A stretch of DNA of 64,000 nt, taken from the NCBI RefSeq assembly GCF_044324785.1, contig NZ_CP172127.1; one strand, given 5' to 3'. The DNA comes from Escherichia coli (lineage in GTDB: Bacteria; Pseudomonadota; Gammaproteobacteria; Enterobacterales; Enterobacteriaceae). Position numbers and translations under genes: made by a program. The notes beneath the pieces are model-generated. The model was given only the letters and a program-made list of their open reading frames with translations. It did no database searches and was not told the origin of the DNA. Shown one piece after another: positions 1-64,000 of the stretch; within the stretch, counting starts at the first letter, position 1, and each line of letters begins with the position of its first letter.

Positions 1-1701
1 CGCCGCCAGTTCGGCATCGCTTACCTGTAACTGAATGCCACGGTTGGGAATGTCGATAGCGATAAGATCGCCGTCTTCAATCAGACCAATGCTGCCGCCG
101 CTTGCCGCTTCCGGCGAGACGTGGCCGATGGAAAGACCAGAGGTGCCGCCGGAGAAGCGTCCGTCGGTGATCAGCGCGCAGGCTTTACCGAGACCCATTG
201 ATTTCAGGAAGCTGGTTGGGTAGAGCATTTCCTGCATCCCCGGACCGCCTTTCGGGCCTTCGTACCGGATCACCACTACATCGCCAGCGACAACTTTGCC
301 GCCGAGAATCGCTTCTACCGCGTCATCCTGGCTTTCGTACACTTTCGCCGGGCCGGTGAATTTGAGGATGCTGTCATCGACGCCCGCGGTTTTAACAATG
401 CAGCCGTTTTCTGCGAAATTACCGTAGAGCACCGCCAAGCCGCCGTCTTTGCTGTAGGCGTATTCCAGCGAGCGGATACAGCCGTTTGCGCGATCGTCAT
501 CGAGAGAATCCCAACGGCAATCCTGCGAGAATGCCTGTGTAGTACGAATGCCAGCAGGGCCTGCGCGGAACATATTTTTAACCGCGTCATCCTGGGTCAG
601 CATAACGTCGTATTGTTCCAGCGTTTGCGGCAACGTCAGGCCAAGCACGTTTTTCACATCACGGTTCAGTAACCCCGCGCGATCCAGTTCGCCAAGAATA
701 CCGATAACACCACCAGCACGATGAACATCTTCCATATGGTATTTCTGGGTGCTCGGCGCAACTTTACACAGCTGTGGAACCTTGCGGGAGAGCTTATCAA
801 TATCACTCATGGTGAAGTCGATTTCCGCTTCCTGCGCCGCCGCCAGCAGGTGAAGTACCGTGTTGGTAGAGCCGCCCATCGCGATATCCAGCGTCATGGC
901 ATTTTCAAACGCCGCTTTGCTAGCAATATTGCGCGGCAGTGCACTTTCGTCGTTTTGCTCGTAGTAACGTTTGGTCAATTCAACAATGCGTTTACCGGCA
1001 TTGAGGAACAGCTGCTTGCGATCGGCGTGGGTCGCCAGCAGCGAGCCGTTGCCCGGCTGCGACAGGCCCAGTGCTTCGGTCAGGCAATTCATAGAGTTAG
1101 CGGTAAACATCCCGGAGCAAGATCCGCAGGTTGGACAGGCGGAACGTTCAACCTGATCGCTCTGGGAGTCAGAAACTTTCGGGTCTGCGCCCTGGATCAT
1201 CGCATCAACCAGATCGAGCTTAATGATCTGATCGGACAGTTTGGTTTTCCCGGCCTCCATCGGACCGCCGGAAACAAAGATCACCGGAATATTCAGGCGC
1301 AGGGAAGCCATCAGCATCCCCGGGGTGATTTTGTCGCAGTTAGAGATGCAGACCATAGCGTCGGCGCAGTGGGCGTTGACCATATATTCAACGGAATCAG
1401 CGATCAGTTCGCGAGATGGCAGTGAATAAAGCATGCCCCCGTGGCCCATAGCGATCCCATCATCCACCGCAATGGTGTTGAACTCTTTGGCAACGCCGCC
1501 AGCCGCTTCAATTTGTTCGGCGACCAGTTTACCGAGATCGCGCAGATGGACGTGACCCGGTACAAATTGGGTGAACGAGTTCACAACCGCGATAATCGGC
1601 TTACCGAAATCGGCGTCGGTCATTCCGGTGGCGCGCCACAGCGCACGAGCACCCGCCATATTACGACCATGAGTGGTGGTGGCGGAACGGTACTTAGGCA
1701 T
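1..1701 (-). CDS. ilvD: dihydroxy-acid dehydratase, 5-prime 567 codons; C-terminal ~49 codons lie beyond the window start
   Basis: Minus-strand translation starts MPKYRSA at complement of 1699-1701 and reads ...VSDAELAA at the window edge; matches remembered IlvD. Not in ORF track because no stop codon within window. Confidence 0.9.
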
Positions 1702-1730
1702 ACTTTATTTACTCCCAGTGTCTGTCTCGT

Positions 1731-1762
1731 AAATGGGACGGTGCGTGCCGTCCCATTTTTTG
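1731..1762 (+). terminator. 10-bp perfect stem-loop plus T-run in the ilvE-ilvD intergenic spacer (terminator-like in + orientation only)
   Basis: aatgggacgg / ccgtcccatt inverted repeat followed by tttttt on the + strand; on the minus (ilv) strand it lacks a U-tract. Confidence 0.35.
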
Positions 1763-1765
1763 TAT

Positions 1766-2695
1766 TTATTGATTAACTTGATCTAACCAGCCCCATTTAT
1801 CTTCGGTTTCGCCAGTGAAGAGGCCGAAGAAGGCTTGCTGAATGCGTTTGGTAACCGGGCCACAACGGCCTTCGCCAACCTGAATACCGTCTACGCTGCG
1901 CACTGGCGTGATTTCTGCCGCCGTACCGGACATAAACACTTCATCCGCCAGATACAGGGATTCGCGCGACAGCACCTGCTCACGCACTTCAATTCCCAGC
2001 TCTTTCGCCAGTTTGATGATGGCGTCACGGGTAATACCCGGCAGCGCGGATGAGGTGAACGGTGGGGTGAACAGCACACCGTCTTTCACTTCAAACAGGT
2101 TTTCGCCTGCGCCTTCAGAGATATAACCGTTCACATCCAGCGCGATACCTTCCTGATAACCGTGGCGGCGCGCTTCGCTACCCACCAGCAGGGAAGAGAG
2201 GTAGTTACCACCGGCTTTTGCCGCCGTCGGGATGGTGTTTGGTGCTGCGCGGTTCCAGGAGGAAACCATCGCATCGATCCCCTGCTCCAGCGCTTCTGCG
2301 CCCAGATACGCTCCCCACGGGAAAGCGGCGATAATTACATCGGTTGAGTATCCCGCTGGCGGGTTAACGCCCATACCAACATCACCGACGAAGATCAGCG
2401 GACGGATATAGGCGCTGGTGAGATTGTTTTTGCGGATCACGTCACGACAAGCTTCCATCAGCTCATCAATGCTCTGCGAAACCGGGAAGCGATAGATTTT
2501 GGCGGAGTCATGCAGACGCTGCATATGCTCACGATGGCGGAATACAACCGGTCCTTTGTGCGAGTCGTAGCAACGGATGCCTTCAAAAACCGAGGTGCCA
2601 TAGTGCAGCGCGTGCGACATCACATGCACCTTCGCGTCTTTCCAGCGAACCATCTCCCCATTGAACCAAATGTAATCAGCTTTCTTCGTGGTCAT
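1766..2695 (-). CDS. ilvE: branched-chain amino acid aminotransferase (309 aa)
   Basis: ORF track 1766..2761; true start MTTKKADYIW at 2695 matches remembered IlvE; upstream extension in the track is spurious. Confidence 0.95.
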   Translation of the reverse strand: MTTKKADYIWFNGEMVRWKDAKVHVMSHALHYGTSVFEGIRCYDSHKGPVVFRHREHMQRLHDSAKIYRFPVSQSIDELMEACRDVIRKNNLTSAYIRPLIFVGDVGMGVNPPAGYSTDVIIAAFPWGAYLGAEALEQGIDAMVSSWNRAAPNTIPTAAKAGGNYLSSLLVGSEARRHGYQEGIALDVNGYISEGAGENLFEVKDGVLFTPPFTSSALPGITRDAIIKLAKELGIEVREQVLSRESLYLADEVFMSGTAAEITPVRSVDGIQVGEGRCGPVTKRIQQAFFGLFTGETEDKWGWLDQVNQ

Positions 2696-2714
2696 TTTTA
2701 TATTCCTTTTGCGC

Positions 2715-2978
2715 TCAGGCGCGGATTTGTTGTGATGTGGTTGTGCTCTGGCAGATGGCAACGTGTGCGACGTCCACCAGTTTATTTAACTGACTAAACA
2801 GTAAGTCGACCGACCGTGGGCTGGCAACGGTCAATTCGATATTTATATTTTGTGCATCGCTGGCGGCAGCCATATTCATTGAGCAGACGTGGAAACCACG
2901 ATGACGCACCACGCGTAAAACACGTTCTAAGGTTTCTGGATTGAAGCGAGCCGATACATTGACCTGATGTTGCATCAT
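2715..2978 (-). CDS. ilvM: acetolactate synthase II small subunit (87 aa)
   Basis: ORF track 87 aa [12 protein letters not shown]...; overlaps ilvG stop by 4 bp as in the ilvGM operon. Confidence 0.93.
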
Positions 2979-4621
2979 GATAATTTCTCCAACATTTCTG
3001 AATTACTGGCACCAGGCGGCACCAGCGGCCAGACATTCTCAAGTTCGTCGATTGAGACATGAAGCAGGTATGGCCCATCACTGTTCAGCATGGTGTCGAG
3101 TGCCGCTTCAACCTGGTCTTTACGGGTGATGTGTTGGCCAGGGATGCCGAAGGCGCTGGCTAACATGAGGAAATCGGGGTTATCAGTAAGGGTGGTTTCG
3201 CTGTATCGTTCCTGAAAAAACAGTTGCTGCCATTGTCGAACCATCCCTAACCGTTGGTTATCGAGTAAGACGATTTTCAACGGTAACTGCTTGCGTTTTA
3301 CGGTGCCCAGCTCTTGCACATTCATCATGAAAGAGCCGTCACCGGAGATACAGACGACGGTATCGTTCGGTCGCGCGACTTGTGCGCCAACCGCCGCTGG
3401 TAAACCAAAACCCATGGTGCCTAAGCCGCTAGAGGTGATGAAATTTTCCGGGCGAGTGTGGGCGATGTGCTGCGCAGCCCACATCTGGTGCTGCCCCACA
3501 TCTGTGGTCACGACGCAATCCGCAGGTTTACGATCCGACAGTTGTTTTAACAACAACGGCGCGTAGATAGCGTCACCGGGATGGTCGTAACGCCAGGAAT
3601 GTTCATCACGCAGCTGCGCGCAGTGTTGCTGCCAGTCATTGATATTTAACGGCTGCTGTAATGCTGGTAACAGAGCATTTAAATCGCCTTGTAATGCCAC
3701 ATGTGCCTGACGCAGCTTGTTCATTTCTGCCGGGTCGATATCCATATGGATAACACTGGCGTGTGGTGCGAAGGTGTTCAGTTTGCCGGTCACCCGGTCA
3801 TCAAAACGTGCACCCACGGCGATCAGCAAGTCGCACTCCTGCACCGCGAAGTTCGCCGCTTTGGTGCCATGCATTCCCAGCATGCCCAGATAGTACGGAT
3901 AATCTGCTTCAACTGCGCCCAGCCCTTTCAGCGTGCAGGTGGCAGGCATTTTTGTGGTAGCGAGAAATTCTCGTAAAGCAGGAACTGCCTGCGCCATACC
4001 TACGCCCCCGCCAACGTACAGCATCGGTTTTTGCGCTTTTGCCAGCATCTGGCGCGCTTGCTCAACTTCGGCATGTGGGAAAGTCACTTCGTTTTCAACG
4101 GTGGTGAACCACGGTTCCAGGTCACCGCTGGCTAGCTGGATATCTTTTGGGATATCGACCAGAACCGGACCAGGACGACCTGAGCTGGCAACGTCGAATG
4201 CTTCAGCCATAATGCGCGGCAACTCTTCAAGCGACTGCACCAGAAAGCTGTGCTTGGTACAGGCTAACGACAATCCCAGGACATCCACTTCCTGAAATGC
4301 GTCAGTGCCGATAAACGGTGCGGACACTTGACCGGTGATGGCAACAACAGGGATGGAATCTAACAGTGCGTCCGCAAGCCCGGTTATCAGGTTGGTTGCG
4401 CCCGGACCAGACGTGGCGATACATACGCCAGTTTTGCCGGTAGCACGGGCATAACCGATAACCGCCATTGCCGCACCCTGCTCATGTCGGCACAGCAAGT
4501 GCTCCACGCCGCCGTCATACAATGCATCGTAAACCGGCATAATTGCGCCACCCGGATAACCGAAAACGGTATTCACACCCTGTGCCCGCAACGCATGTAC
4601 CACCCACTGTGCGCCATTCAT
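2975..4621 (-). CDS. ilvG: acetolactate synthase II large subunit, full length 548 aa (not frameshifted)
   Basis: Single uninterrupted 548-aa [28 protein letters not shown]...; TPP-enzyme signature GDG motif region present. Confidence 0.93.
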
Positions 4622-4704
4622 AGTTAGTTCCCCGTCCTGAATCTTGAGAAACAGAATTTTGTGCTGTTATTCATTGTCTGCTCCTCGGTTATGTTTTTAA
4701 GGTC

Positions 4705-4740
4705 AAAAAAAACCCCCGGACCTTTCGGTGCGGGGGTCTT
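4705..4740 (-). terminator. ilvGMEDA attenuator terminator hairpin
   Basis: On minus strand: GC-rich hairpin (gacccccgcaccgaaaggtccgggggt) followed by U-run, located between ilvL stop and ilvG start. Confidence 0.8.
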
Positions 4741-4760
4741 AGTTCGTTAAGGCTTGATCT

Positions 4761-4859
4761 CTAAGCCTTTCCTCGTCCAAGTGCAGCCCCGCACGGTGGG
4801 ATAATAATCACCACCACGCTAATCACGACCAGGCTAATCACTCGTAGAAGGGCTGTCAT
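4761..4859 (-). CDS. ilvL: ilv operon leader peptide (32 aa, Ile/Val/Leu-rich)
   Basis: Minus-strand translation MTALLRVISLVVISVVVIIIPPCGAALGRGKA*; below 60-aa track cutoff, read by hand. Confidence 0.9.
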   Translation of the reverse strand: MTALLRVISLVVISVVVIIIPPCGAALGRGKA

Positions 4860-5211
4860 TTTGTCTTTTCTTGCATCTTGTTCGAAGGAATGCCTAAAGA
4901 GTTACCATAGATTTTGCGAATAGCACAAGATATTTTTTGGCCGATTTTTATGATGCGTTTAATAATTTCAATAGAAATTGTTGTTTTTTAAAAAGAAAAT
5001 AGTGAGTGAAAAAAATTCAATTTCAGTATAAATGTTGTTCCCTTCCTCGTAGTTCATCCTTTGTCCGCTGCATTTTTGCGAGCATCATTCCACCGCCAGA
5101 ACAACTCAACTTCACTTGCACAAATAAACAGGAATCAGCCACTAAAATTCACGAATTAGCGGGCTACAGCAGCGATATCTTATGCACATAATGGTGACTC
5201 AAGGAGGGCTT

Positions 5212-6732
5212 ATGTCACTGTCAATTGTTCATACCCGCGCAGCCCTGGGAGTAAATGCGCCCCCGATCACTGTTGAGGTACATATCAGTAAAGGTCTACC
5301 CGGCTTAACGATGGTGGGCTTACCAGAAACAACGGTAAAAGAAGCTCGCGATCACGTGCGCAGCGCCATTATCAATAGCGGATATGAATATCCGGCGAAA
5401 AAAATCACCATCAACCTGGCTCCAGCCGATCTGCCAAAAGAAGGGGGACGATATGATTTACCTATCGCCATTGCGTTGCTGGCGGCCTCAGAACAGCTTA
5501 CAGCCAATAAGTTAGATGAATATGAATTAGTCGGAGAACTGGCGCTTACAGGCGCTCTGCGTGGCGTTCCCGGCGCAATTTCCAGTGCAACTGAAGCTAT
5601 TAAGGCAGGTAGAAAAATTATCGTCGCGAAAGATAACGAAGATGAAGTGGGGCTAATTAACGGTGAAGGATGCCTGATAGCCGATCATCTGCAAGCTGTC
5701 TGTGCGTTTCTGGAAGGTAAGCACACTCTCGAACGCCCGAAACCAACTGATGCAATATCCCGGGCGCTACAACATGATCTCAGTGATGTTGTCGGTCAGG
5801 AGCAAGGAAAGCGAGGACTGGAAATTACCGCCGCTGGTGGGCACAACCTTTTACTGATTGGACCGCCGGGGACAGGTAAAACAATGCTCGCCAGCCGTAT
5901 TAATGGCCTGTTGCCAGATTTAAGCAATGAAGAGGCACTGGAGAGCGCTGCGATATTAAGTCTGGTAAATGCTGAATCAGTACAAAAACAATGGCGGCAG
6001 CGCCCGTTCCGCTCACCTCATCACAGTGCGTCGTTAACTGCGATGGTGGGCGGTGGTGCAATTCCAGGGCCAGGTGAAATTTCGCTGGCGCATAACGGCG
6101 TGCTTTTTCTTGATGAGTTACCTGAATTTGAACGGCGTACACTGGATGCCTTGCGAGAGCCGATTGAATCCGGGCAGATCCATCTTTCACGCACACGAGC
6201 AAAAATAACCTATCCAGCCCGTTTCCAGCTTGTCGCGGCGATGAATCCCAGCCCTACCGGACATTATCAGGGAAACCATAACCGCTGCACGCCAGAACAG
6301 ACATTACGTTATCTCAACCGGCTCTCGGGGCCCTTTCTCGACCGCTTCGATCTCTCACTGGAGATCCCATTACCACCCCCCGGCATTTTGAGTAAAACGG
6401 TAGTGCCGGGAGAAAGCAGCGCCACCGTTAAACAACGCGTAATGGCCGCCAGAGAGCGCCAATTTAAGCGGCAGAATAAACTGAACGCCTGGCTGGATAG
6501 TCCGGAAATACGCCAATTCTGCAAACTTGAGAGCGAAGATGCGATGTGGTTGGAAGGAACACTGATCCATCTGGGGTTATCGATTCGTGCCTGGCAGCGG
6601 TTATTGAAAGTTGCACGAACCATTGCTGATATTGATCAGTCTGACATTATCACACGTCAGCATTTGCAGGAGGCAGTTAGCTATCGTGCGATTGACCGTT
6701 TGCTCATCCATCTGCAAAAACTACTGACATAA
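5212..6732 (+). CDS. comM: Mg-chelatase-like AAA+ ATPase ComM/YifB (506 aa)
   Basis: ORF track 5182..6732; likely start ATG 5212 preceded by aaggaggg; Walker A GPPGTGKT present. Confidence 0.9.
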   Translation: MSLSIVHTRAALGVNAPPITVEVHISKGLPGLTMVGLPETTVKEARDHVRSAIINSGYEYPAKKITINLAPADLPKEGGRYDLPIAIALLAASEQLTANKLDEYELVGELALTGALRGVPGAISSATEAIKAGRKIIVAKDNEDEVGLINGEGCLIADHLQAVCAFLEGKHTLERPKPTDAISRALQHDLSDVVGQEQGKRGLEITAAGGHNLLLIGPPGTGKTMLASRINGLLPDLSNEEALESAAILSLVNAESVQKQWRQRPFRSPHHSASLTAMVGGGAIPGPGEISLAHNGVLFLDELPEFERRTLDALREPIESGQIHLSRTRAKITYPARFQLVAAMNPSPTGHYQGNHNRCTPEQTLRYLNRLSGPFLDRFDLSLEIPLPPPGILSKTVVPGESSATVKQRVMAARERQFKRQNKLNAWLDSPEIRQFCKLESEDAMWLEGTLIHLGLSIRAWQRLLKVARTIADIDQSDIITRQHLQEAVSYRAIDRLLIHLQKLLT

Positions 6733-6759
6733 AAAAAGGGCATTTCGCCCTTTTTATTA
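6731..6759. terminator. bidirectional intrinsic terminator between convergent comM and yifE
   Basis: aaaaaaagggcatttcgccctttttatt: hairpin flanked by A-run and T-run. Confidence 0.7.
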
Positions 6760-7095
6760 ATCGTCAGAATCGGTGTAGTCTTCAGCACCTTCAACCTGCG
6801 GTTTACCGCCGGAAAGGGTGTGAAAACGTTTTGGACGCTTGATACGCGTCATATACTTGGACCACACGCGTTCTGCTTCTGTCACTGGCTCACGTTCGCC
6901 ACGGCATACTGCTACGAAGAGTTTCTCTTCCTCGGTAACCGGCTCGCGTTTGCCAAGATCCAACTCATTGAAGGCATAACCATGACGCTCAAGCAGTTGT
7001 GCCTCTTTGATGGTGAAATCACCATGACGAGAGAATCCACGTGGATAATGTTTATTGTCGAAATATCGATTAGTCGTCGTAAAGCTTTCCGCCAT
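6757..7095 (-). CDS. yifE: conserved protein YifE/MaoP (112 aa)
   Basis: ORF track 112 aa [21 protein letters not shown]...; matches remembered YifE. Confidence 0.88.
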
Positions 7096-7213
7096 CCTGC
7101 ACGCTCCTAATTCTTTGACCGAGCTAGTTATGGCGCGGAGTATTAGTTACGCTTGACAGAGTGTAAAACAAAACATTTAAATCATAACGACAAATAATTT
7201 TGCGGAGAGCACT

Positions 7214-8053
7214 GTGGATACGGAATTGTTAAAAACTTTCCTGGAAGTTAGCCGAACGCGTCACTTTGGTCGAGCGGCTGAATCGCTCTATCTGACCCAG
7301 TCAGCAGTGAGCTTTCGAATCAGACAACTGGAAAATCAACTGGGTGTGAACCTTTTCACCCGCCACAGAAACAATATCCGTTTAACCGCTGCCGGTGAAA
7401 AACTACTTCCTTACGCAGAAACGCTCATGAGCACCTGGCAGGCCGCCCGTAAGGAGGTGGCGCATACCTCACGACATAACGAGTTTTCTATCGGTGCCAG
7501 CGCCTCGTTGTGGGAATGTATGCTTAATCAGTGGCTGGGACGCTTGTATCAAAATCAGGATGCCCATACAGGTTTACAGTTCGAAGCGCGAATTGCCCAA
7601 CGGCAGTCTCTGGTAAAACAGCTGCATGAACGCCAGCTTGATCTTCTTATTACTACTGAAGCGCCCAAAATGGACGAATTTAGCAGTCAGTTGCTGGGGT
7701 ATTTCACTTTAGCGCTTTATACCAGTGCCCCTTCCAAACTTAAGGGAGATCTTAACTATCTGCGACTGGAATGGGGGCCAGATTTTCAACAGCATGAGGC
7801 AGGTTTGATCGGTGCTGACGAAGTTCCCATTCTGACAACCAGTTCTGCTGAACTGGCACAGCAACAGATTGCGACGCTTAATGGTTGCACCTGGCTACCC
7901 GTCAGTTGGGCGCGTAAAAAGGGCGGCCTGCATACCGTTGTCGATAGCACAACACTTTCACGGCCGCTTTATGCCATATGGCTGCAAAATAGCGATAAAA
8001 ATGCGTTGATTCGCGATCTATTGAAAATTAACGTGCTGGATGAAGTGTATTAA
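7214..8053 (+). CDS. hdfR: LysR-family transcriptional regulator HdfR (279 aa)
   Basis: ORF track 279 aa; N-terminal LysR HTH ([40 protein letters not shown]). Confidence 0.92.
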
Positions 8054-8111
8054 TCTGAATGGCTGGCAAGGATGCCGGTAGAAGGATTTACTTCGGAGAG
8101 GTTATTTCAGA

Positions 8112-8140
8112 TAAAAAAAATCCTTAGCTTTCGCTAAGGA
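8112..8140 (-). terminator. rrn operon distal terminator (after tRNA-Trp)
   Basis: Hairpin tccttagctttcgctaagga preceded on + strand by A8, i.e. hairpin + U-run on minus strand. Confidence 0.7.
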
Positions 8141-8147
8141 TGATTTC

Positions 8148-8223
8148 TGGCAGGGGCGGAGAGACTCGAACTCCCAACACCCGGTTTTGGAGACCGGTGC
8201 TCTACCAATTGAACTACGCCCCT
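8148..8223 (-). tRNA. trpT: tRNA-Trp (anticodon CCA)
   Basis: Reverse complement reads AGGGGCGTAGTTCAATTGGTAGAGCACCGGTCTCCAAAACCGGGTGTTGGGAGTTCGAGTCTCTCCGCCCCTGCCA. Confidence 0.95.
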
Positions 8224-8231
8224 AATTAGGG

Positions 8232-8308
8232 TGGCGGAACGGACGGGACTCGAACCCGCGACCCCCTGCGTGACAGGCAGGTATTCTAACCGACTGAACT
8301 ACCGCTCC
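8232..8308 (-). tRNA. aspT: tRNA-Asp (anticodon GUC)
   Basis: Reverse complement reads GGAGCGGTAGTTCAGTCGGTTAGAATACCTGCCTGTCACGCAGGGGGTCGCGGGTTCGAGTCCCGTCCGTTCCGCCA. Confidence 0.95.
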
Positions 8309-8360
8309 ACCGAATTCTTTTACAACCACCGGTTTTATGACCGGCTTACTGCTTAATTTG

Positions 8361-8480
8361 ATGCCTGGCAGTTCCCTACTCTCGCATGGGGAGACCCCAC
8401 ACTACCATCGGCGCTACGGCGTTTCACTTCTGAGTTCGGCATGGGGTCAGGTGGGACCACCGCGCTACGGCCGCCAGGCA
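8361..8480 (-). rRNA. rrfC: 5S ribosomal RNA
   Basis: Reverse complement begins TGCCTGGCGGCCGTAGCGCGGTGGTCCCACCTGACCCCATGCCGAACTCAG and ends ...GGGAACTGCCAGGCAT. Confidence 0.96.
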
Positions 8481-8583
8481 AATTCTGTTTCATCAGACCG
8501 CTTCTGCGTTCTGATTTAATCTGTATCAGGCTGAAAATCTTCTCTCAATCCGCCAAAACAGCTTCGGCGTTGTAAGGTTAAGC

Positions 8584-11488
<2,905 letters not shown>

Positions 11489-11671
11489 AAGATGTTTCTT
11501 TCGATTCATCATCGTGTTGCAAAAATTTGAGAGACTCACGAACAACTTTCGTTGTTCAGTGTTTCAATTTTCAGCTTGATCCAGATTTTTAAAGAGCAAA
11601 TATCTCAAACATCACCCGAAGATGAGTTTTGAGATATCAAGGCAGGTGACTTTCACTCACAAACCAGCAAG

Positions 11672-11747
11672 TGGCGTCCCCTAGGGGATTCGAACCCCTG
11701 TTACCGCCGTGAAAGGGCGGTGTCCTGGGCCTCTAGACGAAGGGGAC
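11672..11747 (-). tRNA. gltU: spacer tRNA-Glu (anticodon UUC)
   Basis: Reverse complement GTCCCCTTCGTCTAGAGGCCCAGGACACCGCCCTTTCACGGCGGTAACAGGGGTTCGAATCCCCTAGGGGACGCCA. Confidence 0.95.
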
Positions 11748-11832
11748 GTATCAGTCTGCTTCGCAAGACGCCTTGCTTTTCACTTTCTATCAGACAATCT
11801 GTGTGAGCACTACAAAGAACGCTTCTTTAAGG

Positions 11833-13374
<1,542 letters not shown>

Positions 13375-28726: not shown

Positions 28727-29170
28727 ATGGCAGATATCACTCTTATCAGCGGCAGCACCCTCGGCGGTGCCGAATATGTGGCAGAACACCTGGCTGAAAA
28801 GCTGGAAGAGGCGGGTTTTACCACCGAAACGCTGCACGGTCCGCTGTTGGAAGATTTATCTGCCTCGGGGATCTGGCTGGTTATCAGCTCAACCCACGGT
28901 GCCGGAGATATTCCGGATAACCTTTCTCCTTTCTATGAAGCATTGCAGGAACAGAAGCCCGATCTTTCTGCGGTCCGCTTTGGCGCTATCGGTATTGGCA
29001 GTCGTGAATATGACACCTTTTGTGGGGCTATCGATAAACTCGAGGCTGAACTCAAAAATTCCGGTGCAAAACAGACAGGCGAAACACTGAAGATCAACAT
29101 TCTTGATCACGACATTCCGGAAGATCCGGCAGAAGAATGGCTGGGATCGTGGATTAATTTACTCAAATAA
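28727..29170 (+). CDS. mioC: flavodoxin-like protein MioC (147 aa)
   Basis: ORF track 147 aa MADITLISGSTLGGAEYVAEHLAEK; reads toward oriC. Confidence 0.94.
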   Translation: MADITLISGSTLGGAEYVAEHLAEKLEEAGFTTETLHGPLLEDLSASGIWLVISSTHGAGDIPDNLSPFYEALQEQKPDLSAVRFGAIGIGSREYDTFCGAIDKLEAELKNSGAKQTGETLKINILDHDIPEDPAEEWLGSWINLLK

Positions 29171-29177
29171 GTATACA

Positions 29178-29460
29178 GATCGTGCGATCTACTGTGGATA
29201 ACTCTGTCAGGAAGCTTGGATCAACCGGTAGTTATCCAAAGAACAACCGTTGTTCAGTTTTTGAGTTGTGTATAACCCCTCATTCTGATCCCAGCTTATA
29301 CGGTCCAGGATCACCGATCATTCACAGTTAATGATCCTTTCCAGGTTGTTGATCTTAAAAGCCGGATCCTTGTTATCCACAGGGTAGTGCGATCCTAATA
29401 AGAGATCACAATAGAACAGATCTCTAAATAAATAGATCTTCTTTTTAATACCCAGGATCC
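29178..29460. other. oriC: chromosomal replication origin oriC (DnaA boxes, GATC cluster, AT-rich 13-mer unwinding element)
   Basis: DnaA boxes tgtggataa (29194-29202) and ttatccaca (29373-29381), further box-like sites ttatccaaa and tgtgtataa; many GATC sites; 13-mers gatctctaaataa / gatcttcttttta around 29419-29447; flanked by mioC and mnmG. Confidence 0.92.
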
Positions 29461-39680: not shown

Positions 39681-39982
39681 TACGCGTATTGACCCGTCCT
39701 GAAAAGCGTTCACATAGATCCTGATGATATAAAATACTCCTGTTTTCCCGTTTATTCATTGATCGAAATAAGAGCAAAAACATCCACCTGACGCTTAAAT
39801 GAAGGTACTGCCTTAATTTTCTGCAGACAAAAGGCGTGACGATGGTCGAAAATGGCGCTTTCGTCAGCGGGGATAATCCGTTATTGAACAATTTATCCTC
39901 TGTCCATTTCACGATGAAAAAAATGTAGTTTTTTCAAGGTGAAGCGGTTTAAATTCGTTCTCAAATTACAGTCAGGACGCGT

Positions 39983-46637: not shown

Positions 46638-47495
<858 letters not shown>

Positions 47496-47509
47496 TTCAG
47501 GAGTGCGTT

Positions 47510-48235
47510 ATGGACAGTCTCAATCTTAATAAACATATTTCCGGCCAGTTCAATGCCGAACTGGAAAGCATCCGCACGCAGGTGATGACCATGGGCGGCA
47601 TGGTGGAGCAGCAGCTTTCTGATGCAATCACCGCGATGCATAACCAGGACAGCGATCTGGCGAAGCGCGTCATCGAAGGCGACAAGAACGTCAACATGAT
47701 GGAAGTGGCGATCGATGAAGCCTGCGTGCGCATTATTGCCAAACGCCAGCCGACGGCGAGCGACCTGCGTCTGGTGATGGTGATCAGCAAAACCATTGCC
47801 GAACTGGAGCGTATTGGCGATGTGGCGGACAAAATCTGTCGTACTGCGCTGGAGAAATTCTCCCAGCAGCATCAGCCATTGCTGGTGAGTCTGGAGTCGC
47901 TGGGCCGTCATACCATCCAGATGCTGCACGACGTGCTGGACGCGTTTGCGCGGATGGACATTGACGAAGCGGTACGTATTTATCGTGAAGATAAAAAAGT
48001 CGATCAGGAGTACGAAGGTATTGTTCGTCAACTGATGACCTACATGATGGAAGATTCGCGTACCATTCCGAGCGTACTTACCGCGCTGTTCTGTGCGCGT
48101 TCAATCGAACGTATCGGCGACCGCTGCCAGAATATTTGTGAGTTTATCTTCTACTACGTGAAAGGTCAGGATTTCCGTCACGTAGGCGGTGATGAGCTGG
48201 ATAAACTGCTGGCCGGAAAAGACCCGAAAGAGTAA
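47510..48235 (+). CDS. phoU: phosphate signalling protein PhoU (241 aa)
   Basis: ORF track 47492..48235; start [19 protein letters not shown] at 47510. Confidence 0.94.
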
Positions 48236-48280
48236 CGCTAACTGTAGGTCAGATAAGGCTTTTACGCCGCATCTGGCAAT

Positions 48281-48309
48281 CAGCCCGGTCATACATAGTT
48301 ACCGGGCTG
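48281..48309. other. 9-bp-stem hairpin at left island junction (no U-tract)
   Basis: cagcccggt catacatagtt accgggctg; sits after a REP-like fragment (agataaggc...gccgcatctg) downstream of phoU. Confidence 0.4.
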
Positions 48310-48524
48310 ATACACATTCTCCCTGAAATATTGCCACACAAACTCACCTCGAAACTCTCCCAGTACATTGCATATACATTATTTCATTTGAATTATTTTG
48401 CTTTTAATGTAGTACCCCGCTATAAAAACATTTTTGTTATTCCTTTCATTTATATCGCTGCCTGCACAGAGAATGGAAAAGAAAACAAAAACCAGGGTAA
48501 AAGCCCTATATCGAAACATAAAAA

Positions 48525-56516: not shown

Positions 56517-57854
56517 ATGAGTCAACAACACACAACCCAGGCTTCTGGCCAGGGGATGCTGGAACGCGTGTTTAAACTGCGCGAACATGGCACGACGGCA
56601 CGGACCGAAGTGATCGCCGGTTTTACCACCTTCCTGACGATGGTTTACATCGTTTTTGTTAACCCGCAAATTCTTGGCGTTGCTGGCATGGATACCAGCG
56701 CCGTCTTCGTTACTACCTGTCTGATTGCTGCATTCGGCAGTATTATGATGGGACTGTTTGCTAACCTGCCAGTTGCACTGGCACCCGCTATGGGCCTGAA
56801 TGCGTTCTTCGCTTTTGTGGTTGTACAGGCGATGGGCTTGCCGTGGCAAGTCGGGATGGGCGCAATCTTCTGGGGCGCGATTGGTCTGCTGTTACTGACG
56901 ATTTTCCGCGTTCGCTACTGGATGATAGCCAACATTCCGGTGAGTCTGCGTGTTGGCATCACCAGCGGTATCGGTCTGTTCATTGGCATGATGGGGCTGA
57001 AAAACGCAGGTGTGATTGTCGCTAACCCGGAAACGCTGGTCAGCATCGGTAATCTGACTTCTCACAGCGTGCTGCTGGGGATCCTCGGTTTCTTCATCAT
57101 TGCCATTCTGGCCTCGCGCAACATTCACGCGGCGGTGCTGGTTTCCATCGTGGTGACGACGCTGCTGGGCTGGATGCTGGGTGATGTCCACTACAATGGC
57201 ATCGTTTCTGCGCCGCCGAGCGTAATGACTGTCGTGGGTCATGTAGATTTAGCCGGGTCGTTTAACCTCGGGCTGGCAGGGGTGATTTTCTCTTTCATGC
57301 TGGTCAACCTGTTTGACTCCTCCGGTACGCTGATTGGCGTGACCGATAAAGCAGGTCTGGCGGATGAGAAAGGTAAATTCCCGCGCATGAAGCAGGCGCT
57401 GTATGTCGACAGTATCTCTTCGGTGACCGGTTCGTTTATCGGTACTTCTTCTGTTACGGCGTATATTGAGTCCTCTTCCGGCGTTTCCGTTGGCGGTCGT
57501 ACCGGTCTGACGGCAGTGGTTGTTGGTCTGCTGTTCCTGCTGGTTATCTTCCTGTCGCCGCTGGCGGGAATGGTGCCGGGATATGCCGCAGCTGGCGCGC
57601 TGATTTACGTTGGCGTGTTGATGACTTCCAGTCTGGCACGCGTGAACTGGCAGGATCTTACTGAATCTGTTCCGGCGTTTATTACCGCCGTGATGATGCC
57701 GTTCAGCTTCTCGATTACCGAAGGTATCGCGCTGGGCTTTATCTCCTACTGCGTGATGAAAATCGGTACCGGACGTCTGCGTGATCTAAGCCCGTGCGTA
57801 ATCATCGTTGCGCTGCTGTTTATCCTGAAGATTGTCTTTATCGACGCCCATTAA
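56517..57854 (+). CDS. adeP: adenine permease AdeP/PurP/YieG (445 aa)
   Basis: ORF track 445 aa, polytopic NCS2-family-like transporter. Confidence 0.92.
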   Translation: MSQQHTTQASGQGMLERVFKLREHGTTARTEVIAGFTTFLTMVYIVFVNPQILGVAGMDTSAVFVTTCLIAAFGSIMMGLFANLPVALAPAMGLNAFFAFVVVQAMGLPWQVGMGAIFWGAIGLLLLTIFRVRYWMIANIPVSLRVGITSGIGLFIGMMGLKNAGVIVANPETLVSIGNLTSHSVLLGILGFFIIAILASRNIHAAVLVSIVVTTLLGWMLGDVHYNGIVSAPPSVMTVVGHVDLAGSFNLGLAGVIFSFMLVNLFDSSGTLIGVTDKAGLADEKGKFPRMKQALYVDSISSVTGSFIGTSSVTAYIESSSGVSVGGRTGLTAVVVGLLFLLVIFLSPLAGMVPGYAAAGALIYVGVLMTSSLARVNWQDLTESVPAFITAVMMPFSFSITEGIALGFISYCVMKIGTGRLRDLSPCVIIVALLFILKIVFIDAH

Positions 57855-57870
57855 AATCGACAGCGCGTTA

Positions 57871-57908
57871 AAAACCCGCCATGCATGATTGCTGGCGGGT
57901 TTTTTATT
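57871..57908. terminator. bidirectional intrinsic terminator between adeP and yieF
   Basis: aaaaa cccgcca tgcatgattgc tggcggg tttttt. Confidence 0.75.
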
Positions 57909-58474
57909 TAGATCTTAACTCGCTGAATAAACTCACCAAATGCAGTCAATTGCCCGGTCAGGTGGTCCAGCGTACCCTGATCAATCACTTCTCCGGTTTG
58001 CGGATCAACTTTGTTCTGAATCACGCCGCCCATAAATTCCGGCTTGTTCATCACCATTGCATCGAGGAAAACCAGAATCTGGCGCAGGTGATACTGACAG
58101 CGCGCGCCGCCAATCACGCCCATTGAGCTGGTCTGAATCAACACCGGTTTACCGGCCAGAGGTTGATCCGGCAGGCGGGAAAGCCAGTCGATGGCATTTT
58201 TCAGCCCACCCGGTACCGAGTAGTTATATTCCGGCGTGACGATCACCACACCGTCAGCCTGACGGATCTGTTCCGCCAGAGCTTCAACCGTTGCTGGAAA
58301 ACCTTCTTCCTGCTGTACGTCAGCGTCATACAGAGGAATGTCGGCAATGGAAGGTAACGCATTAACTTCCATGCTTGCCGGAGCAATTTTCGGCAGGGTA
58401 CGTGCAACCATGCCATTAAATGAGCCTTTGCGCAGGCTCCCCAGTAACGTAACCACCTGCAATTTTTCAGACAT
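57908..58474 (-). CDS. yieF: NAD(P)H-dependent FMN reductase / chromate reductase (188 aa)
   Basis: ORF track 188 aa MSEKLQVVTLLGSLRKGSFNGMVARTL. Confidence 0.92.
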   Translation of the reverse strand: MSEKLQVVTLLGSLRKGSFNGMVARTLPKIAPASMEVNALPSIADIPLYDADVQQEEGFPATVEALAEQIRQADGVVIVTPEYNYSVPGGLKNAIDWLSRLPDQPLAGKPVLIQTSSMGVIGGARCQYHLRQILVFLDAMVMNKPEFMGGVIQNKVDPQTGEVIDQGTLDHLTGQLTAFGEFIQRVKI

Positions 58475-58495
58475 GATGACTCCTGTGGTTGTCTA

Positions 58496-59257
58496 TCAAT
58501 TTGGCGAAAAAGCCTTCACGGTAGAGAGCTGGGCAAAACGCATCATCCGGCTGGTAGGATTGTTGGCGCGGCTGTGAATATCCGGCAGGCTTTTCCAGCC
58601 GTGTTTGCCATCTAACTCCCAGACACTGAGCTTTTCAATCGTGGGCGTGACCGCCACGGACCACACCAGCACGTCCTCCGCGTCGCATAACGCTTCTACA
58701 TGATTTACATGAGCACATTTCAGGCGTCCGGCAATGGGCAGCAGCTGCAGATCGCGCGGATCGTCATTCAAAACATCACCGGTTAGTTTTAGCACGCTTC
58801 GGCGCAGCGTGATGAGCTGCGCCCGCGCTTCGTTAGGATCGTTTTGTTTACTGATCCATAGCGATTCATTGCTGGAAAAGGTGTGGTTATCGGGCGCGTG
58901 TGGGCTATGAAACCCGCGCGTCGCACGCTGTAGTTCCATATCGAGGCCACATTCACCTTCGGTTGTTAACGCCACGCCAACCATATTCCCGGCATAGGAA
59001 ATAGAAAACGAAGGCAAATTTTTATCGCTGAAAACCGGTTTACCTTTCGGCAGGGTGACGATTTCCGGCAATTCGCCAATGCCATACAGCATGAACATCA
59101 GTTCTGCGAGTAAACCTCTGGACGCCAGAAAACGGCTTTGACGATGAGGGGGAATGTTTCGGGCTTCTTGATGACACTGGGAGGGGAGACGAACAGAAAT
59201 CAGATGTCCTTCCGTTAAAATCCCTCGGGCAAAGTGAGTCGCCATTTTTCGCTCCAT
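58496..59257 (-). CDS. yieE: putative phosphopantetheinyl transferase YieE (start may be 59245, MATHFARG)
   Basis: ORF track 253 aa; internal Met at residue 5 is the alternative start. Confidence 0.85.
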   Translation of the reverse strand: MERKMATHFARGILTEGHLISVRLPSQCHQEARNIPPHRQSRFLASRGLLAELMFMLYGIGELPEIVTLPKGKPVFSDKNLPSFSISYAGNMVGVALTTEGECGLDMELQRATRGFHSPHAPDNHTFSSNESLWISKQNDPNEARAQLITLRRSVLKLTGDVLNDDPRDLQLLPIAGRLKCAHVNHVEALCDAEDVLVWSVAVTPTIEKLSVWELDGKHGWKSLPDIHSRANNPTSRMMRFAQLSTVKAFSPN

Positions 59258-59401
59258 GCTTAATGGTCCATTATGAATACAAGAGTAATCATTTACTGGA
59301 ATGATGGACAGACTAAAGCGGCTAAAAGTTCGATTCAGACAAGCTTATTACAACTTTTTTACATTTTATTGTGAAATTGGGTCGCGTTTCATACGATTCG
59401 G

Positions 59402-60361
59402 TTATGCCATCGACGCGTAAAGATTTTTAATGGTTTCCCGTAACCAGACGATCTTCGGATTATGGCTGTTCCGTTTATGCCACAGCAGGGTAAAAGGGAC
59501 TTCCAGCTTTTTTTGCTGGCTTTCGTCAAACGGGAGAGGAAGAGCAACCAACGGCAGTTGGTGGAGTTGATTGTAGTACTGACAGTAGCGCGGTGCGGTC
59601 GCCAGTAGCAGATTGTCGGGCTGCGCTGCCATAAACAGTGACTGCTCGAATTCCGGCAGGCTCATTGCAATCGTACGTTCGCGCCCCAGCTCCTGTAACA
59701 CATTGTCCAGCGCCCAGGTATCGCTCTGTTCCCAGCAAATGCTGATATGCGGATAACGTAAAAAGGTGTCCAGATTCCATGCTTCATGCAGTGCCGGATG
59801 ATCTTTGCGTAACCAGACGCAGGGCACATCACTAAACAGCACTTCATAATCAATGGCTAACGGTAGCGAGCTTAACAGCTCCCGCGAGCGAGGATGGCTT
59901 TCGCGACCGGAAAAGCCAATATCCACTTCACCACGAGTAATGGCATCTAAGGAATCGTAATCCCAGTTACGTAATTTGATGGTCGCCTGGGGGTAACGTT
60001 GGTAGATCCGTTTCGACAGCGCATTAAGCATGATCATCATTAGCGGTGATTCTGCTGCCAGCTCAAACTTCAGGCCGCGCGGTGTCTGGTGGTGCGGTTT
60101 ATCCAGCAGCAGGTTGCTCATTTGCATCCACTCCGCCAGATTTTGCTCCATGCTGACCATTAGCGGTGTGGGCGACAGCCCCAGCGGTGAGTTCACAAAG
60201 AGCGGGTCGTCAAACCACGCTCTTAACTTTGCCAGCGACTTACTCACCGCCGAAGGGGTCACGTTCATCCGCTTCGCCGCTTTGGTCACGCTGCGCTCCT
60301 GCATCAGCAGTTGCAGACAGAGCAGCAGATTGAGATCAAGCGTGGTGATGGATTTCTTCAT
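59402..60361 (-). CDS. yidZ: LysR-family transcriptional regulator YidZ (319 aa)
   Basis: ORF track 59402..60370; start [40 protein letters not shown] at 60361. Confidence 0.9.
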
Positions 60362-61511
60362 GAGCGGCAACCGGGCGTCCAGGCGCGACGAACATAATCA
60401 GCAACAGGCTCACTATGCTACAGGCAATCAGAATCCCGATCAGCATATTCCATGCGCCGATACCAACCACCGCTGCCAGCCAAATCCACAGTGACGAACC
60501 GCAAACCTGCGCAATACCTAAGGTCGAGCTGGCTACGCCCGCGCGTAATGAAAACGGCCCTAACGCCTGACTCATCGCCACACCAAAACCTACCGAGAAA
60601 CCGGCGCAAATCAGCGTAATACCAAACAGAGAAACCGCATGGGAAGGTGAAACGGCAAGGGTGATCCCCGCCGCCAGGAATAACACCTGCGAGGTGAGCA
60701 TCAACGTACGTGGCTTAAAAATTCCCAGCGCAAATGGCGTGGAGAATGAAACGGTCATACTGACGCCAGCGGTCAGCGCCATAATGGTGGCGTATTCCCC
60801 GCGCTCAAAACCCATGATTTCCATCAGCAATACCGGCGACGTGTTGACGAAGGTGAGGATCACCGAAACGCTGAGGGTGGTGATAACAACACGGCTGAGG
60901 AAAAACCGGTTAAGCAGCGACTCGCTATTTTCTCGTGGTTTGTCAGAAGCTGCGAGGGCCGCAGGGCGCGTTTCTTTTAAAATAAACAAAGACAACATCA
61001 GTACCGCGATGCCCATCGTTGCCATCGTCCAGAACAGACTCTGCCACGGGAATTTAAGCATAATCAGGTGTCCGAGCACCGGCGCTAATACCGGAATGAT
61101 GCAGGTAATGCCGTTGAGTAGCGACAGCACTTTAGCCCGACGTCGATCGTCCAGCGTGTCGCGTAAAATGGCGAACGCCACCACGTAACAACAGCCCGCG
61201 CCCAGCCCCTGTAGAAATCGCCCTGCAAGAAATAACGCACTGGTTTCAGCCAGTGAACAGAACACCGAGGCGATAATAAATAGCGCCGCGCCGGGGATGG
61301 CGACAGGCTTTCTCCCTGAACGATCGGCCACTTTACCGGCAAATAACATCGCAGCTGCCATGCCCGCCAGATAAACGGAGAACGCAATATGCAACTGCGC
61401 TTCGCTGGCATTGAGATCGGTGGCGATGCGCGGTAAACCAACGAGGTACATATCAATCCCGGCGGGATAAAGTAAAACCAGGGCAAAACTACAAATCAAA
61501 AAGCGGGACAT
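60336..61511 (-). CDS. mdtL: MFS multidrug efflux transporter MdtL (391 aa)
   Basis: ORF track 391 aa; overlaps yidZ start by 26 bp. Confidence 0.92.
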
Positions 61512-61642
61512 GGGCTAAAGCGTCCTGATAGTAAGGTGACGCAAAGCATACGTGGTGAAGGAGAATCAGGCGAGTTGCCATTTGGACATAAGTGATTTCC
61601 TGACAGGCAAGAAGCCAGCGAATGGCTGGCTTCTTGAAGGAT

Positions 61643-62890
61643 TTAGCCAAATTTAGGTAACACATTAAAGACGTTACCGAACCAGCATAAAATTACGGTT
61701 ATACCAAAGAGAATGACAATCGCCGGAATAAGATTGCCGCCCCAGACCGTGAACATCTGATTGGGAAACTTCTTGCGAGCTTTGATTGCCAGCACTGCGG
61801 GAATAATGACCGCCCAGATGGTGGCGCACAGTCCGGCACCGCCGATCCCGTAAATAAAGCCGTTCGGGAAGATCAGATACAACAACGCAGGTGGCAGGAA
61901 GGTTAACAACACGGTTTTGAAACGCCCGGCGTGGGAGTTATCAATCTTAAACAGATCCGCCAGATAATCGAACAATCCCAGCGTGACACCAAAGAACGAA
62001 CTGGCAACAGCTAAGTTGGAGAACACCAGCAGGCAAAACTCGATAATCCCATGCTGTTTGGTGCCGAGGAACGATTTCACCAACGAATCAACGTTGCCGC
62101 CTGAGGAGATTATCGCCTTAAAGCTTTCTCGCGGGATATTCCCCATCGTGCAATAGAGCCAGAAGAGATAAATCACCAGCGCCAGCAGCGAACCGAAGAC
62201 CACGCTTTTGATTAGCTTATCTTTGCGTTTGCCATAGCAAATAATCAGGCTGGGAATATTGCCGTGGAAACCAAATGACGCCAGACACACCGGCAAAGCC
62301 ATAAAGATATACGGGAAGTAAGACGTCCCCGCAGTCGTGCTGGTGGAATCGCGCAGAATGGAATAATCGACCTGGAAGAAGAAAGAACCAAACACGATCA
62401 CAAAGGAGATAATCTTCAACCCGAGGAACAATGAGGTAATACGACTGGCGGCTAAAGAGCTTATCCACAATACGCTGGCAACGAAAATGGCTGTGCAGAT
62501 CCCGACAATACGTGGATTAGCGTGATAACCCAAATTCATTGATATCGTTTCACTAATGATCGCACCATTAGCAGAGATATAGGCATAAGTGAGGATATAG
62601 AGAACGAAGGCAACGGTAATACCGCTGATAATGTTCCAGGTGTTACCGATTAAATCTTTGGTGATGGTGTTAAAACTGGAGCCGACGGGATAATTTAAAT
62701 TTGCTTCTAATAACAATAACCCGGAATGAAGCATTGAAAACCAGGCAATGATAAGGATAAAGGCACCCCAGAAAAACCAGGCACCGGCAAGATCAACAGG
62801 TAAAGCAAACATACCTCCACCAATTACTGTACCTGCTATAACCATAACACCCCAAAATGCAGAGTGCTTTTTTTCAGCTTGATCAGTCAT
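61643..62890 (-). CDS. tnaB: low-affinity tryptophan permease TnaB (415 aa)
   Basis: ORF track 61643..62974; start MTDQAEKKHSAFWGVMVIAGT at 62890 (upstream extension is read-through into IS5 flank). Confidence 0.92.
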   Translation of the reverse strand: MTDQAEKKHSAFWGVMVIAGTVIGGGMFALPVDLAGAWFFWGAFILIIAWFSMLHSGLLLLEANLNYPVGSSFNTITKDLIGNTWNIISGITVAFVLYILTYAYISANGAIISETISMNLGYHANPRIVGICTAIFVASVLWISSLAASRITSLFLGLKIISFVIVFGSFFFQVDYSILRDSTSTTAGTSYFPYIFMALPVCLASFGFHGNIPSLIICYGKRKDKLIKSVVFGSLLALVIYLFWLYCTMGNIPRESFKAIISSGGNVDSLVKSFLGTKQHGIIEFCLLVFSNLAVASSFFGVTLGLFDYLADLFKIDNSHAGRFKTVLLTFLPPALLYLIFPNGFIYGIGGAGLCATIWAVIIPAVLAIKARKKFPNQMFTVWGGNLIPAIVILFGITVILCWFGNVFNVLPKFG

Positions 62891-62904
62891 GATGCCACCT
62901 TTAG

Positions 62905-64000
<1,096 letters not shown>

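Follow-up and report, generated by a model that had tools for sequence, protein, structure and literature searches.

The ilvG locus and its surroundings

In this study, we analysed a stretch of 64,000 nucleotides of Escherichia coli DNA (hereafter the window), which carries on its minus strand, at 2975..4621, the gene ilvG for the catalytic subunit of acetolactate/acetohydroxyacid synthase II (AHAS II), as assigned from the list of open reading frames, the sequence, the NCBIfam model NF006524 and RefSeq. The reading frame begins with an ATG at 4621 and runs through 548 codons, with no internal stop, to a TGA that ends at 2975. The original prediction, that a single 548-aa ORF at 2975-4621 is ilvG, proved exact in its coordinates, stop codon included, and we add the strand, which it had not given. 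Against the NF006524 equivalog model the product scored 1073.5 bits (cut-off 738), with residues 1-547 aligned to profile positions 1-547 of 548, and the NCBIfam models of other AHAS isozymes all stayed below their own cut-offs except the general model TIGR00118. An identical protein is on record for E. coli (WP_395765590.1 / XJR00112.1) with the Pfam domains TPP_enzyme_N, TPP_enzyme_M and TPP_enzyme_C of ThDP enzymes (PF02776, PF00205 and PF02775), which are also recorded in all 120 close IlvG homologues, and the homologous stretch is labelled ilvG by RefSeq in both K-12 and strain N3. The catalytic Glu47 and the ThDP-Mg motif GDG...DNQ (from residue 427, with D428 and N455) are present, F109, Q110, M250, R276, M460 and W464 are all kept, and across 130 enterobacterial IlvG proteins the catalytic and cofactor residues vary little or not at all. 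The 90%-identity protein cluster that holds the window IlvG also contains 1,041-aa CusA/CzcA efflux proteins of Bacteroides, its representative among them, which looks like an artefact of database clustering and not biology.

Upstream of ilvG, the leader gene ilvL, the attenuator and ilvX are all identical to K-12 base for base. The ilvL gene (4761..4859, minus strand) has 32 codons and encodes an Ile-, Val- and Leu-rich peptide, MTALLRVISLVVISVVVIIIPPCGAALGRGKA; the attenuator hairpin with its T-run follows at about 4700-4745 (minus strand), and ilvX (4624..4674, minus strand), a 16-codon peptide gene whose DNA is identical to the ilvX annotated in K-12 and N3, lies directly upstream of ilvG. 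The Rfam 5'UTR family RF02744 matches at 4641-4930 on the minus strand (157.1 bits). A simple terminator scan of the minus strand did not report the ilv attenuator, and its call rests on the identity with K-12. On the other side, the ATG of ilvM (2715..2978, minus strand), which encodes the 87-aa small subunit of AHAS II (NF008362, 133.9 bits against a cut-off of 68), overlaps the TGA of ilvG in the sequence ATGA. The ilvM DNA is the same as that of N3, whose product shares its protein accession with K-12 IlvM. The next gene of the operon is ilvE (1766..2695, minus strand) for the branched-chain amino acid transaminase (TIGR01122, 489.8 bits; annotated as ilvE in K-12 and N3), and the genes follow the order ilvL-ilvX-ilvG-ilvM-ilvE-ilvD, as they do in the annotated loci of K-12 and N3.

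Several other features were observed elsewhere in the window. A complete rRNA operon at 8151-13374 on the minus strand (16S, spacer tRNA, 23S, 5S and two distal tRNAs) is consistent with rrnC by its position next to hdfR. The region 29090-29460 resembles oriC, with a dense cluster of about 18 GATC sites and three DnaA-box matches, and the window therefore spans the chromosomal replication origin; the flanking ORFs we take to be mioC and mnmG from their length and the K-12 gene order. The sRNA STnc410 has a match at 39742-39899. Between phoU and yieH, at 48640-55548, lie two large ORFs (847 and 808 aa) and one of 394 aa, which in N3 are annotated as a type III effector protein, the T3SS effector EspY4 and a pentapeptide-repeat protein; a search of these three ORFs with the NCBIfam models gave no match. 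Among 5,426 complete E. coli genomes, 1,092 have a place that covers 80% or more of window 47000-64000. An IS5 element with the left inverted repeat GGAAGGTGCGAACAAG and an IS5-family transposase (367 bits) occupies 62905-64000 and continues past the last position of the window. Its insertion point lies between tnaB and the expected tnaA, 14 bp upstream of where tnaB starts; N3 lacks this element, which may leave tnaB uncoupled from the tna operon.

The K-12 frameshift site

Since 1981 it has been textbook knowledge that ilvG of K-12 is frameshifted, with valine sensitivity and polarity on ilvEDA as the consequences. In a MAFFT alignment of ilvG from the window, K-12 MG1655 and N3, the MG1655 gene, which is annotated as a 'frameshifted' pseudogene, is 1,645 bp long as compared to 1,647 bp in the window. 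The two differ by a single indel, also seen with 31-mers over the junction: 2 bp at gene positions 977-978 in codon 326 (window 3644..3645, minus strand), one AT of TTAAATATCAATGA, are missing from K-12, and their loss places a TGA in frame after codon 327 (...PLNQ). The site reads TTAAATATCAATGAC in the window and likewise in N3, whereas K-12 has TTAAATCAATGAC, and both the window and N3 translate through it as ...PLNINDWQQ.... The ilvG frame is thus open in the window because both AT bases at 977-978 are present. The claim that ilvG is intact and free of the K-12-type frameshift is confirmed by this alignment, in which the site is wild type and no premature stop appears; the window does not belong to the frameshift allele defined by the 2-bp deletion at 977-978.

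Distribution of intact ilvG in E. coli

As a reference set we used 5,426 complete RefSeq E. coli genomes. A 31-mer over the K-12 junction, which seeds only where the 2-bp deletion exists, was found in 340 of the 5,426, and an exact 31-mer over the intact junction in 3,495; these counts, like those for codon 54 below, are lower bounds, as SNPs close to the site prevent the exact 28-base seed from matching in about 1,580-1,590 genomes, which are thereby left unassessed. All of 40 rows sampled across the ranking of K-12-junction matches were K-12 or laboratory derivatives (MG1655, JM109, HB101, MC4100, J53 and NEB 5-alpha). In a set of 30 evenly spread genomes, the alignment extends over the full 1,647 bp in 27 and over 1,645 bp in two of K-12 type, and one genome has a deletion. 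The identity of the window ilvG to that of 5,423 complete genomes ranges from 94.8 to 98.9%. By default, then, E. coli has an intact ilvG, and all sampled carriers of the broken K-12 allele are K-12 laboratory strains. Therefore, as a lineage marker, the open frame says that the source is not K-12, and nothing more.

Relationship to K-12 and strain N3

That the source is a non-K-12 lineage was borne out by several comparisons. The window ilvG is 97.9% identical to that of K-12, with 33 further differing positions beside the 2-bp indel, and 76 differences were counted across 4.6 kb. Furthermore, the effector-gene island and the IS5 of the window are both unshared with K-12. The nearest complete genome is that of N3, with 99.7% identity over window 1-8200, whereas every other genome reaches at most 98.4%. 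Within ilvG, 18 differences separate the window from N3, and 16 of these are clustered at gene positions 115-621 (window 4001-4507), while the remaining 3 kb of the comparison hold just four differences. The cluster is probably a short recombination tract acquired in one of the two strains, the window strain or N3. The comM/yifB gene for a Mg-chelatase-like AAA ATPase (5182-6732), which is intact in the window, is annotated as frameshifted in N3.

No identical ilvG allele was found among the 5,426 complete genomes, in which the best match to the whole gene is 98.9% identical, and the 5' 640 bp of the gene likewise has no match above 98.9% in this set. Given this divergence, Shigella or another source outside E. 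coli was considered, and it was rejected on the grounds that the identical protein is on record for E. coli (WP_395765590.1 / XJR00112.1). A contig of the Logan project from the public run ERR13187251 matches the window base for base along 7,621 bases, codon 54 among them; it is recorded in two samples.

A private substitution at codon 54

The window ilvG carries a C>T change at gene position 161 (window 4461..4461, minus strand), identified by alignment and by 31-mers, which turns codon 54 from GCT into GTT and replaces Ala by Val (A54V). The 31-mer with GTT at codon 54 occurs in 0 of the 5,426 complete E. coli genomes, as compared to 3,847 for the GCT control, and A54V is thus absent from the assessable genomes. 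With no identical allele among the complete genomes, C161T is not traceable to a known allele background.

At the protein level, residue 54 is Ala in all the other 129 of the 130 enterobacterial IlvG proteins (cluster representatives), and Val54 is the only rare residue of the window IlvG in this comparison. For a more diverse set of AHAS proteins we searched 1.84 billion cluster representatives exhaustively and aligned the best 150 (40-58% identity). In this set, 147 of 148 sequences have Ala at position 54, one has Thr and none has Val, a conservation comparable to that of Glu47 (148/148). HMMER alignments place Ala at this position in E. coli IlvB (6lpi) and Arabidopsis AHAS (7tzz) as well. 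Residue 54 lies seven residues C-terminal to the catalytic Glu47, on the same stretch.

Discussion

Our results are best read as an ordinary wild-type E. coli ilvG allele within an intact ilvLXGMEDA operon that would make AHAS II, a reading to which we give a probability of roughly 0.8. Transcription would start upstream of ilvL under control of the Ile/Val/Leu attenuator, and ribosomes would translate all 548 ilvG codons and pass straight to ilvM via the ATGA overlap. IlvG and IlvM would then assemble into acetohydroxyacid synthase II, a ThDP/FAD/Mg enzyme expected to condense pyruvate with pyruvate or 2-ketobutyrate with no feedback inhibition by valine. Valine in minimal medium should then not prevent growth of such a strain, and its ilvEDA expression should be free of the polar reduction that is seen in K-12. 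These expectations agree with what has been reported for E. coli. AHAS I and AHAS III are inhibited by valine and AHAS II is not, and K-12, unable to make AHAS II, is valine-sensitive, its frameshift being polar on the downstream genes ilvEDA (PMC8605374); the statement in the original prediction that the K-12 frameshift inactivates AHAS II and causes valine sensitivity agrees with this report. Restoration of the K-12 ilvG frame by 1-bp deletions is sufficient for growth at 1 mg/ml valine (PMC8605374), and E. coli B, in which ilvG is intact, is able to grow on valine dipeptides, with ilvGMEDA expression above the K-12 level (PMC3446290).

The prediction had gone further and called AHAS II functional in this lineage. 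What can be read directly from the sequence, the intact frame and the kept catalytic residues, agrees with this, and activity, which the prediction drew from the frame, is no more than probable in view of A54V. AHAS II of the window strain is thus likely to be functional, and we infer expression, enzyme activity, valine resistance and tolerance of A54V all from the sequence.

An open ilvG frame might also be expected in a K-12 derivative in which the frame had been secondarily restored, an ilvG+ or 'ilvO' valine-resistant revertant, and such revertants do arise readily in K-12 (PMC8605374). However, they regain the frame via nearby 1-bp deletions and not by recreating the AT (PMC8605374), whereas the window has the exact common wild-type sequence at this site. 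The 33 further differences in ilvG and the 76 across 4.6 kb also speak against a revertant, as does the effector-gene island, which is annotated in N3 and in other non-K-12 genomes. The flanks are not near-identical to K-12, and the alignment thereby refutes a revertant origin, to which we assign a vanishingly small probability. Hardly more credible is that an error of assembly or sequencing produced the open frame or A54V. Short repeats such as ATAT are common places for erroneous indels, although nothing specific points to one here; the intact junction is the same as in thousands of genomes, and the Logan contig of ERR13187251 agrees with the window over all of its 7,621 bases, codon 54 included, albeit that the same reads may underlie both assemblies.

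A different kind of doubt attaches to A54V, which could leave the frame intact but the enzyme impaired, by destabilising or weakening AHAS II to the point of a partly or fully valine-sensitive strain. The near-invariance of Ala in both protein sets, in which Val is never seen outside the window, and the absence of the GTT context from the complete genomes argue for such an effect. On the other hand, Ala to Val is a conservative change, a beta-branched residue, Thr, occurs at position 54 in one natural homologue, and the window IlvG is otherwise without rare residues. The same sequence in the Logan contig also indicates that the variant belongs to a viable lineage. To our knowledge, moreover, residue 54 is no known site of AHAS II inactivation or herbicide resistance, as described in work on A26V, V99M and A108V, and this counts against impairment. 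Taken together, we regard impairment as unlikely. Put more broadly, and again with a low probability, the substitution could measurably change AHAS II, whether by making it less active or less stable or by shifting its substrate preference or its response to inhibitors. If so, a full-length ilvG would not, in this lineage, confer the wild-type AHAS II phenotype.

Returning to the ordinary wild-type allele as the preferred reading, an intact ilvG frame is already known and ordinary in E. coli, and the private A54V is the sole new detail. The significance of the intact gene is accordingly small, that of a sanity check against a K-12-derived window. The practical point is that an intact ORF should not be equated with a functional enzyme unless the private A54V at a near-invariant site is mentioned.

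Among known systems, the closest are the wild-type ilvG genes of E. coli B (REL606), W, HS, O157:H7 and N3, which share with the window the length of 1,647 bp and 548 aa, the junction at codons 325-328, the operon context and the catalytic residues. They differ from it in being at most 98.9% identical to the window ilvG and in lacking the private A54V. The K-12 ilvG pseudogene (ilvG_1/ilvG_2) is orthologous, at 97.9% identity, and ilvL, the attenuator, ilvX and the IlvM protein are identical between K-12 and the window; the K-12 gene, without the 2 bp at 977-978, stops after codon 327, whereas the window reads through. More distantly, E. coli AHAS I IlvB (6lpi) and the plant and yeast AHAS enzymes (1ybh, 1n0h) belong to the same ThDP/FAD fold family, align with the window IlvG end to end (E 1e-161 to 1e-145) and have the catalytic Glu and the ThDP motif in common with it. 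Unlike the window IlvG, however, these different isozymes have Ala in place of Val54, and AHAS I is inhibited by valine, unlike AHAS II (PMC8605374).
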